Shown here: positions 8,663 through 23,737 of the stretch, in pieces
How positions within the stretch are numbered: the first letter of the stretch is position 1
How the letters are laid out: each line of letters starts with the position of its first letter
IMG/VR virus record: IMGVR_UViG_3300032205_000001
Location: 108,218-172,217 of that record
Source: a virus
Lineage: Duplodnaviria > Heunggongvirae > Uroviricota > Caudoviricetes
DNA length: 64,000 nucleotides
Direction: 5' to 3' (one strand)
Translations under genes and position numbers: made by a program
Notes under the pieces: model-generated
Databases searched by the model: none
What the model saw: the letters and a program-made list of their open reading frames with translations, nothing else
Told to the model about the DNA's origin: nothing

Positions 8663-8872
8663 TCAGTCCGAGTAGCCCTTAACGCCACGGCGCGGGATGT
8701 TCACATCGTCAGGGGCTTTGGTCTTCAGCTGCTTCTTGCCTTGCTGACGGAGGTAGCGGGTAGCTCCGCGTTTGGCTTCCTTGCTGGCACCGGGGCTGCG
8801 CTGAAACGCAGCACGCAAGGAGCCGCGCATCAAAGCCTCGGTGCGAATGTCTTCGATCAGCTGCTTGAACAT
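8663..8872 (-). CDS. hypothetical protein
   Basis: 69-aa ORF, tightly packed. Confidence 0.6.
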   Translation of the reverse strand: MFKQLIEDIRTEALMRGSLRAAFQRSPGASKEAKRGATRYLRQQGKKQLKTKAPDDVNIPRRGVKGYSD

Positions 8873-9126
8873 TAGCGTCGACCTCTCTCATACCAGTCGC
8901 TGCACATTTCATCGAGCGGCCAGCTGGGAAGTTTATGGCTGCCGCCATTCCAGCGAGCGTAGTGAGGAGACCCGCAGGAATGCTCCTTTACGTTCACGAA
9001 ACGGCAGTTGGCGCAGGAAGATCCACCTTTTGGAACCCTCAGCAACGCCTTATGGTCGGACGGGAATGTCTCCGCGTTAGTCTCGCTAAGCACGCGACGA
9101 GATTCGTGGATGATCCATCCGAACAC
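8872..9126 (-). CDS. hypothetical protein (Cys-rich)
   Basis: 84 aa; CANC...C...C. Confidence 0.6.
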   Translation of the reverse strand: MFGWIIHESRRVLSETNAETFPSDHKALLRVPKGGSSCANCRFVNVKEHSCGSPHYARWNGGSHKLPSWPLDEMCSDWYERGRR

Positions 9127-9182
9127 CTCGCTACACTATTCCAACAGATCCGTGCTGTCAAACCTCAGCAAACACACGGTTT

Positions 9183-9911: not shown

Positions 9912-10751
9912 TTAGATGGGCGCCCGCAGCACATCGCGGACATCGTAGCTGAGGCTGTTCCACCACTCCAGCTCCGCCTTGGTGAGCTTCTTGTAGTACC
10001 GCCACACACCGAAGACACGATGCTCGGTGGAGTAGGTGCGCCACCAACCATTGTCTCCGAGGGAGCGGAATCCCGGCGAGCTGTACTTCTCGACGAGAGC
10101 AGCCGGCGTGGTCTCGACACGGCGGTGGAGGTCGTGGGAGATGTGGCAGCGACCACGGATGGCCTTGCAGGTATCCCAACGATCGACGTCATCGTGGAGC
10201 GCCCAGGCGTGGGGCTTCCAGCCGCTGTCGATCACCTTCCGGTCACGAGCAAAGGCGAGAGCCTGCGCCAGGGACGGACCGCTGTATCCGCTCTGCCATA
10301 CACGACGGTAGCGCTTGCCACGGTCCTGCAGCAGTCCCTCATCGTCGATGAAGAAGCGCTGGCTGCGGTAGTGCGCCAGAGCATCGCTCGTCGTGCCAGC
10401 ACCCTCCACCTCGGTCAGCATGTGCTGATTGACGATGTGCCAGGCGCTGAGCTTGCGAGTATCGAACGTCCCCGCGAGCTTGCTGCGGACATCATCCCAG
10501 CGCTCGCCGCAGTGGCTAGCAAGCCAGCCGTAGCAGGGACCGAGATTGTCCGTGAAGCCCTTGTGGACCTTGTTGCGAGGCTCCGGGTCGGAATCCTCGG
10601 CGGCGTCGATGTCGAAACGCACGTTATCGAGCCAGACCTTGGTCCGGCTGCGCTCGTGACGGTGCGACTCGTTGCGCTCGTCTTTGTTGTGCTTATAGCG
10701 TCCGCCCTCGACGGCGGACCTCGAAATATCCTTGGTTGCCATGTACGTCAC
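9912..10751 (-). CDS. hypothetical phage protein (279 aa)
   Basis: Long ORF with SD-like GGAG upstream. Confidence 0.75.
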   Translation of the reverse strand: MTYMATKDISRSAVEGGRYKHNKDERNESHRHERSRTKVWLDNVRFDIDAAEDSDPEPRNKVHKGFTDNLGPCYGWLASHCGERWDDVRSKLAGTFDTRKLSAWHIVNQHMLTEVEGAGTTSDALAHYRSQRFFIDDEGLLQDRGKRYRRVWQSGYSGPSLAQALAFARDRKVIDSGWKPHAWALHDDVDRWDTCKAIRGRCHISHDLHRRVETTPAALVEKYSSPGFRSLGDNGWWRTYSTEHRVFGVWRYYKKLTKAELEWWNSLSYDVRDVLRAPI

Positions 10752-10850
10752 TCCTGGAAATGCACTGCAAGTTCGCTAACTTACATGTGATTTCAGTAGT
10801 GCCGCGCATTGGTGTTTCCTTGGACTTTCGGTTGGTTTCTACGAGAGAGG

Positions 10851-10894
10851 CTTGCTTACCGTTGCTCCCTTCCGGGCCTGGCGGGGTTCACAAG
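10851..10894 (-). ncRNA. SRP RNA domain IV (helix 8) hairpin
   Basis: CTTGTGAACCCCGCCAGG-CCC-GGAA-GGG-AGCAACGGTAAGCAAG: CAGG/AGCA symmetric loop and GGAA tetraloop. Confidence 0.8.
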
Positions 10895-10902
10895 TTGAAT
10901 GC

Positions 10903-10931
10903 ACCCTAATGGACGAGCGGCGCATTGTCAA
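10903..10931 (-). promoter_or_regulatory. sigma70-type promoter upstream of the SRP-like hairpin
   Basis: TTGACA-17 bp-TAGGGT. Confidence 0.55.
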
Positions 10932-10938
10932 GAATTAG

Positions 10939-11067
10939 TCTGGCAGTGAAGAGTCGAACTTCTGTTTGATAACCGTTTCCGGTCGGTTCGCGAACGAACA
11001 AAGAAGTGGTCACGGAGCGCTACAGGCTTGCGCCTGCACCCTAGGGCCCTCCTAGGGAAGCTGCCAG
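10939..11067 (-). ncRNA. tRNA-like/Y-like hybrid RNA 1
   Basis: CTGGCAG/CTGCCAG ends, T-loop TTCGACT, two hairpins in place of the D arm, module TTGTTCG-TTCG-CGAACCGA...ACGGTTATC. Confidence 0.75.
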
Positions 11068-12150: not shown

Positions 12151-12525
12151 CTAACCGAACCTGTTGCTGCCGAACGGCGCTATCATGCATCGTACGCCAG
12201 CATCGTCAAGAATTCCTGCCATCCTTCGACGACCAGCATCGTTAAATGAGTGCAGGACAACGAACTTTGGCCGCATCTCTTCCGGCAAGGTGGCGATGAA
12301 TTCAGCCACGTGTGTGCCGGTCTTCTCGTCGGATGCTGGACGACCAGCCGCAGCTAGCTCGGACAGGTCGTGGTCAAGGTACGCGAGATCGAACTTGGTC
12401 TTGGCAAGAGCCGCGCAAGCATCTGCGTAGTTCATGACCGCTGTGATGTCCATGCCGATGCGATCCATCTTGAACTTCTTGTGGCGCTCAGCGTCGTCGT
12501 CTAGGAAGAAAATTTTCTGGTTCAT
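12151..12525 (-). CDS. cyclic-phosphate processing receiver (cREC)-like domain protein
   Basis: FLDDD...YLDHDL...TG...LHSFN..GRRRM signature. Confidence 0.8.
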   Translation of the reverse strand: MNQKIFFLDDDAERHKKFKMDRIGMDITAVMNYADACAALAKTKFDLAYLDHDLSELAAAGRPASDEKTGTHVAEFIATLPEEMRPKFVVLHSFNDAGRRRMAGILDDAGVRCMIAPFGSNRFG

Positions 12526-21407: not shown

Positions 21408-21436
21408 AGCCTACGAAAAGATTTACGGTTTGTCAA
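21408..21436 (-). promoter_or_regulatory. sigma70-type promoter at the head of the tRNA array
   Basis: TTGACA-17 bp-TAGGCT, 6 nt before the tRNA-fMet 5' end. Confidence 0.65.
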
Positions 21437-23535: not shown

Positions 23536-23737
23536 TATCGAGACCGGCGTTGAGAATATCGCCGGACTGGCCGTCATTTCCGTGGAAAAGGAATTCGGAA
23601 TCGCTGGTCTTGATCACTTGCTTAAGGTTGTGGAAGAGCGAAGAAAGACGCTACTCTACGAGGCTCAGAAGGAGCGCAATTGGGCTCCCAAATGACCATA
23701 CCTTGACAATGCGGGCAACACCGCATAATGTCTTGCT

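Follow-up and report, generated by a model that had tools for sequence, protein, structure and literature searches.

A Mini SRP-RNA Hairpin within the tRNA Gene Island of a Large Uncultured Phage

The stretch of DNA analyzed here (64,000 nucleotides, hereafter the window) is part of a 175,284-bp IMG/VR virus record that is about 80% complete and encodes a portal protein, a UvsX-like recombinase, and a DnaB-like helicase. The window contains 47 tRNA genes in a 21-kb island that lies on the minus strand throughout, and a mini SRP-RNA hairpin is placed within this island. No close relative of the locus was found in the phage collection. A BLAST search with the hairpin against cultured phages returned two metagenome-derived "Acinetobacter phage MD-2021a" records and, apart from these, chance matches only. 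The features of the locus, in the order in which they would be transcribed, are as follows.

10926..10931, minus strand: −35 hexamer TTGACA, invariant in all seven hairpin-bearing sequences.
10903..10908, minus strand: −10 hexamer TAGGGT, 17 nt after the −35 hexamer; TAGGGT in six of these sequences and TACCGT in L088.
10895-10925, minus strand: promoter palindrome, with further examples at 23703-23731 (plus strand), L091:2355-2390, and L096:1353-1381.
10895..10897, minus strand: predicted +1 at about 10896, placed by the usual 7-nt distance to the −10 hexamer.
10851..10894, minus strand: SRP RNA helix 8 (domain IV) hairpin of 44 nt, matching RF00169 and conserved in relatives.
10885..10888 (5′ AACC) and 10857-10858 (3′ UA), minus strand: asymmetric loop, from the sequence and the Rfam alignment; the same sequence is found in bacterial ffs.
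10877..10880 (5′ CAGG) and 10863-10866 (3′ AGCA), minus strand: symmetric loop, an exact match.
10870..10873, minus strand: GGAA tetraloop on a CCC/GGG stem (10874-10876 with 10867-10869).
10822..10850, minus strand: A/C-rich unstructured leader that starts with the pyrimidine run CCUCU; about 10 to 29 nt long among relatives.
10817..10821, minus strand: Shine-Dalgarno sequence AAGGA of the small ORF; CCAAGGAA is conserved in relatives.
10693..10809, minus strand: 38-codon ORF (MRGTTEITCK...LQC...) with conserved ATG and Shine-Dalgarno sequence and in-frame indels; it overlaps the start of the next ORF.
9912..10742, minus strand: 276-aa ORF with its start ATG at 10742 and the Shine-Dalgarno sequence AGGAG at 10751-10755.

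Other elements of the island were recorded as well. A body with the shape of a tRNA and a long insert occupies 10937-11058 on the minus strand; its acceptor stem is CTGGCAG/CTGCCAG and its T arm is GAAGTTCGACTCTTC. This body stops a few bases short of the −35 box, and its 3′ end is CTA, not CCA. A cREC_REC (cyclic-phosphate processing receiver) protein is encoded at 12151-12525 (minus strand) and is found at the same position in the related contigs L088 and L089. Full-length homologues of EF-Tu (393 aa; GTP_EFTU, D2, D3) are present at the edge of the tRNA island in L089:1-235 and L095:1-359, and none was found in the window's own record.

An earlier reading, made from the sequence only, had described an isolated SRP RNA domain IV hairpin at this site. 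The observation is confirmed in every detail and is fully supported, with all of the described loops, the tip, and the stem present at 10894..10851 on the minus strand. The closure that was given as CTTG/CAAG lies within a CUUGU/GCAAG closing stem of five pairs (C-G, U-A, U-A, G-C, and U.G), which is followed by a G.A. A 3-bp CCG/CGG helix, with a C.A at its flank, separates the asymmetric loop from the symmetric loop. The CAGG/AGCA symmetric loop is the contact of the Ffh M domain in 4.5S RNA. The GGAA tetraloop is the docking place of the NG domain of the receptor in the early complex (PMC4737761).

The match to the Rfam model Bacteria_small_SRP (RF00169), a check that the sequence-only reading had proposed, was obtained with 40.7 bits and an E value of 2.9e-5 for the whole 64-kb window. 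It spans model positions 24-66 of 97, and no non-canonical pair is flagged. The gathering cutoff of this family is 40 bits, which is passed marginally and from the hairpin alone. The hairpin is the one SRP-like match in the 175-kb record. One occurrence of its 18-nt core pattern was found in the window, where 0.06 would be expected even with two mismatches allowed. The hairpin folds as predicted, and its stability is ordinary relative to shuffled sequences (z of −0.3). Such a value is expected of a loop-rich protein-binding element, but folding lends no independent support.

The long proximal helix of 4.5S RNA had been reported as missing, and it is indeed absent: the Rfam match is local, and the flanks of the hairpin do not pair. 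The 5′ flank is the promoter, and the 146-nt region around the hairpin folds worse than its shuffles (z of +2.3). Bacterial ffs genes with an identical core score 56-68 bits over model positions 1-97; for the phage copies, the scores are 40.7-41.1 bits, over positions 24-66. When a global alignment was forced with Infernal on a relative (L002), only 1.4 bits were gained and many non-canonical pairs resulted. A complete conventional 4.5S RNA, in which case the element would simply be a phage ffs gene, is excluded by the local-only match and the nonpairing flanks. Without helix 5, the distal docking site for the Ffh-FtsY GTPase pair is absent. Since the hairpin stands barely above the Rfam cutoff, annotation pipelines may mislabel phage copies as complete ffs genes.

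The predicted start of transcription lies 1-2 nt ahead of the hairpin. A generic sigma-70 scan missed the promoter, the −10 hexamer of which (TAGGGT) agrees with TATAAT at three of six positions. Promoters of the form TTGACA-N15-19-TANNNT are nevertheless about 8-fold enriched in the window, with 8 copies against 0.97 expected and no case of at least 8 copies in 100 shuffles. All eight copies are oriented with the local genes, and their −10 boxes are mostly TAnnGT. With the copy TTGACA-17-TAGGCT at 21408-21436 (minus strand), +1 coincides with the opening base of the array's first tRNA (21401), and this tRNA would then need no 5′ processing. The spacer of the hairpin promoter diverges among relatives while the −35 hexamer is constant and the −10 hexamer varies as TAGGGT or TACCGT, a promoter-like pattern. 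In the hairpin-free relative L096, the same TAGGGT promoter precedes the same genes. In an unrelated 416-kb phage (L022), a TTGACA-17-TATAAA promoter ends 8 nt before a hairpin of the same kind, with the geometry found in the window.

On the basis of the enrichment, the orientation with the genes, the geometry at the first tRNA, the conserved −35 and −10 hexamers, and the promoter of L096, the TTGACA-17-TAGGGT sequence is accepted as the predicted promoter of the hairpin transcript. The proposal that such a promoter would start transcription about 2 nt before the hairpin is supported at the sequence level: the motif is present, is of the 8-fold enriched type, and is conserved in relatives. A stem formed by AAUGCGCC and GGGUGCAUU overlaps this promoter and occurs in shifted registers among relatives. 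Palindromes directly after the −35 hexamer (AATGC..GCATT, AGCCTG/CAGGCT) are common in the TTGACA promoters of this phage group, and the stem seems to be one of them. The AAUGCGCC/GGGUGCAUU stem was considered as a second RNA hairpin and rejected; its 5′ arm would not be transcribed from this promoter, and it was treated as a feature of the promoter. The palindrome could be an operator or could form a hairpin in read-through RNA. A separate copy of the promoter type, TTGACA-17-TAGTGT at 9133-9161 (minus strand), places +1 at 9126, which is the listed GTG start of the ORF at 8872..9126, and the mRNA of this ORF may be leaderless.

The hairpin had been placed upstream of an ORF at 9912..10751. 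An ORF does follow downstream; its start is most likely the ATG at 10742, not the GTG at 10751, and the 38-codon ORF (10809..10693) intervenes. The EIT...LQC motif of this small ORF is also found in the distant, hairpin-free relatives L090 and L092. No terminator was found after the hairpin in this clade, and the hairpin may consequently never exist as a free RNA. The 276-aa protein has 60 homologues, none of them named, and no Pfam or PHROG family or PDB sequence match was found for it. It falls only in unnamed viral clusters of the Atlas. With its AlphaFold model (pLDDT of 84), no Foldseek match was obtained at E ≤ 0.001, and the highest VIA Z is 5.7.

Relatives of the locus were collected by the DNA pattern and by homologues of the downstream ORF. 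The hairpin and promoter are present together in six further contigs: L080, L078, L079, L081 (the same contig as L002 and L003), L088, and L089. An IMG/VR search with the ORF alignment returned no additional relatives. Across the seven sequences (the window and the six contigs), 42 of the 44 positions of the hairpin are invariant, and the two variable positions form one compensatory pair, from U-A to C-G, in the closing stem. The end point of the helix is identical in all seven, and the hairpin is always in the same slot. The flanks diverge in the promoter spacer and in the sequence and length of the leader, and the neighboring protein is 57-88% identical. Invariance at 42 of 44 positions and the compensatory pair, set beside these diverged flanks, point to purifying selection on the hairpin.

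Seven more distant loci (L090-L096) contain the two-ORF unit without an SRP hairpin, and the small ORF is visibly conserved in several of them. The leaders of the hairpin-free loci are not notably structured, with folding no better than in shuffled sequences. A different 5′ hairpin in the same slot was considered for L091 and L096 and was rejected, as these leaders fold no better than their shuffles. The hairpin-bearing loci group together in a tree built from the 276-aa protein. This tree requires two changes, against a mean of five for shuffled labels; as few were obtained in 3 of 500 shuffles. Nested within the hairpin-bearing loci is L096, which has lost the hairpin or never had it; its position looks like the result of a secondary loss, and the hairpin is dispensable for the neighboring genes. 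The hairpin is best read as something added in this clade at the +1 position of an older transcription unit and not as an obligatory part of it.

The core pattern was found at 43 loci in IMG/VR, which fall into three groups. About 9 of these are chance matches in coding regions, where a flanking stem is missing and the free N-N position is unpaired. About 17 are ordinary full-length SRP RNAs, mainly on short or proviral contigs. The remainder are hairpin-only elements of 38-50 nt on large phage contigs, mostly within tRNA arrays, and they represent at least eight other large-phage lineages (L004, L005, L011/L012, L019, L022, L031, L038, and L039). The elements of L004 and L038 run into U runs. 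Two huge phages (L007/L016) carry a near full-length SRP RNA (57.7 bits). A nearly full-length small SRP RNA (57.7 bits, model 1-97) was recorded in the tRNA array of a 497-kb phage record (L083; G002:C1:349767-349859), in which no Ffh was found. At L005:3240-3470, the motif GGGGATCAAGACCTC..TTTCCGC stands on both sides of the SRP hairpin, and two weak YrlA-like Rfam matches (33-35 bits) were obtained there.

These hairpins share the core motif of the window's copy, mostly sit in tRNA arrays, and in L022 also have a promoter 8 nt upstream. Most of them differ from it in their closing stems, which are unrelated, and in having no asymmetric loop of the bacterial type. No other member of the set has as complete a helix 8 as the window's copy, which precedes an mRNA, has a well-supported promoter that puts it at the start of the predicted transcript, and can be compared with natural relatives that do or do not carry the hairpin. 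When ten hairpin elements were aligned without gaps, all 60 of 60 cells paired and 16 cells were changed on both sides. The covariation is 0.80 against 0.17 in shuffles (reached in 0 of 500), a value to be read with the choice of elements in mind: they were picked partly for forming stems, so that the flanking helix is biased, and the N-N pair of the search pattern is unbiased. Conservation and covariation together strengthen the structural reading of the hairpin. As judged from these comparisons, trimmed hairpins are retained convergently in independent large-phage lineages.

The 40-nt core of the window's hairpin is identical to helix 8 in 29 bacterial contigs, 14 of which are from Acidobacteriota. 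These contigs carry ordinary full-length ffs genes, and the identity ends exactly at the base of helix 8. The hairpin was probably captured from the ffs gene of a host and then trimmed to 44 nt. Acidobacteriota are a candidate host, which is only a lead, as other phyla share the same core.

We favor, with moderate confidence, the reading that the hairpin is a phage-made mimic of the tip of SRP RNA, probably inhibitory, with Ffh as its predicted partner. The mimic would correspond to the apical helix 8 (domain IV), in which the loops for the Ffh M domain and the GGAA tetraloop are retained. The early-type TTGACA-17-TAGGGT promoter would give an RNA that starts 1-2 nt before the hairpin, and the hairpin would either stay at the 5′ end of the mRNA for the 38-aa and 276-aa products or be clipped off within the A/C-rich leader. 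Searches for SRP54 M and G domains gave no match in this record or in five further records of phages with such RNAs; with no Ffh from the phage, the partner would have to be host Ffh. A particle of Ffh and the hairpin should still recognize signal sequences and contact FtsY through the tetraloop, and would be unable to complete the cycle. In the bacterial particle, once the receptor has docked at the tetraloop, the GTPase pair relocates to the distal end, the site at which hydrolysis is set off (PMC4737761). Shortening of the distal stem first reduces GTPase activation and targeting and then eliminates both, according to bioRxiv 10.1101/378745, which summarizes Ataide et al. 2011. Because helix 5 and its distal GTPase-docking site are missing from the phage hairpin, the particle should fail to complete the cycle. 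The predicted net effect is that Ffh, and possibly FtsY, is titrated away from productive targeting of host membrane proteins.

An Ffh decoy was also among the roles proposed in the sequence-only reading. We infer transcription, the binding of Ffh, and the inhibitory direction of the effect. E. coli cells contain more 4.5S RNA than Ffh and the two bind very tightly, which would require a decoy to be abundant or to catch newly made Ffh. The benefit of an SRP block to the phage is not obvious, since the phage itself needs membrane proteins. Extended beyond this locus, the proposal would be that many large-phage lineages make SRP RNA tips that load host Ffh into GTPase-dead particles, a viral dominant-negative RNA that shuts down or redirects co-translational membrane-protein targeting; this wider form is tentative and, in our estimation, doubtful.

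The hairpin could instead act in cis, as a 5′-terminal leader by which the mRNA recruits Ffh, either for protection of its 5′ end or for translation of the ORFs in dependence on the level of free Ffh. Ribosomal-protein leaders that imitate rRNA offer a resemblance. The geometry is suited to such a role, with the hairpin at +2/+3 of the predicted transcript, no terminator before the Shine-Dalgarno sequence 30 nt downstream, and the hairpin in the same slot in 7 of 7 members of the clade. A conserved pyrimidine run (CCUCU or UCUUC) that adjoins the hairpin could also pair with the AAGG of the Shine-Dalgarno sequence. RNAalifold does report this CCUY/AAGG pairing, which is weak, with 4 bp across a loop of variable length. 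No hydrophobic segment was found in the 38-aa or the 276-aa product, which removes a membrane-targeting rationale. The promoter and the two-ORF unit exist without a comparable hairpin in seven relatives, and the equivalent hairpins of other phages have tRNA genes beside them or terminator-like U runs after them, in place of ORFs. The nonhydrophobic products and the hairpin-free relatives that keep both ORFs make an obligatory cis role in SRP coupling unlikely. The suggestion of a cis element that couples the downstream mRNA to SRP loses support on these same grounds, together with the lack of an ORF after the equivalent hairpins, and we regard a cis-acting leader as unlikely.

A working minimal SRP RNA, which would support the targeting of phage membrane proteins by keeping Ffh loaded and active once the host's transcription has been stopped, appears improbable. 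Phages of this kind carry near-complete sets of tRNAs and other translation RNAs, which is suggestive of supplementation, and the nearly full-length copy in the 497-kb phage indicates that supplementation may be the ancestral role. Against this, host 4.5S RNA is stable and abundant, and its supply is unlikely to be limiting. Truncations of E. coli 4.5S RNA that are without the distal site also lose GTPase activation and targeting (PMC4737761, and bioRxiv 10.1101/378745, citing Ataide 2011).

The hairpin might also be a decoy for some other factor that recognizes helix 8, for example a host defense nuclease that targets RNA. Phage tRNAs are known to counter tRNA-cleaving defenses (PMC10264068). 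The literature search turned up no toxin or defense that cleaves or senses SRP RNA. We know of none, and consider a decoy of this type very improbable. Least probable of all is a functionless relic, either a fragment of host ffs picked up with tRNA genes or the remnant of an attachment site: the core is identical to bacterial ffs and phages can integrate into ffs (PMC12540744), but the hairpin is strictly conserved beside diverged flanks with a compensatory change, trimmed copies are kept independently in many phage lineages, and the center of the gene is retained, not the 3′ end as in att sites, with no integrase in the record. An attP remnant was rejected specifically because the shared segment is the central 40 nt, short of the 3′ end of the RNA gene, and no match to the integrase family PF00589 was found in the record (about 80% complete). 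An imitation of the 23S GTPase center or of an EF-G site was considered as well and set aside; the 3′ strand of the phage hairpin, GGGAGCAACGG, appears unlike the decamer of the old 4.5S/EF-G literature.

The favored reading, a mimic of the SRP RNA tip that would bind host Ffh, can be set beside several known systems. SRP is essential and universal. Our literature search, which covered subscription journals thinly, brought up no account of an SRP RNA, or a piece of one, encoded by a phage, and none of a virus that targets SRP with an RNA. The link between phages and ffs in the literature searched was the use of ffs as an attachment site only (PMC12540744). Phage phiEf11 uses ffs in this way, with a 27-nt att core adjoining the integrase (PMC12540744). 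The likeness is that phage DNA shares host ffs sequence; the window differs in that the central hairpin is shared, no integrase is present, and the DNA belongs to a large phage whose genes include those for a portal protein, a UvsX-like recombinase, and a DnaB-like helicase.

The T4 species 1 and 2 RNAs are stable non-tRNA RNAs of a phage tRNA cluster. These RNAs, phage tmRNAs, and YrlA-type Y RNAs are likewise small and structured, lie in phage tRNA clusters, and mimic or supplement the RNAs of the host. They belong to different RNA families, and fragments of SRP RNA are not among them. Should the hairpin bind Ffh, protein targeting would join the host processes that are manipulated with look-alikes of tRNA, tmRNA, and Y RNA.

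The closest counterpart is bacterial 4.5S RNA itself (ffs; RF00169), which has the same GGAA tetraloop, CAGG/AGCA loop, asymmetric loop, and flanking pairs, with 40 nt identical. The phage hairpin is 44 nt long, compared with about 97-114 nt for 4.5S RNA, and is without helix 5 and the distal docking site. It is also phage-encoded and lies at +2 of a promoter, with an mRNA after it. Laboratory fragments of 4.5S domain IV, used for Ffh M-domain binding and crystallography, and the blunt truncations of Ataide et al. 2011, as summarized in bioRxiv 10.1101/378745, span this same region. From these fragments and truncations, tight binding of Ffh with loss of GTPase activation would be expected of the phage hairpin. 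The laboratory fragments are artificial, whereas the phage hairpin is natural, conserved, and viral. If it binds Ffh, the phage hairpin would constitute a natural experiment on the tip of SRP RNA without the distal docking site, for which artificial truncations have so far been the only source.
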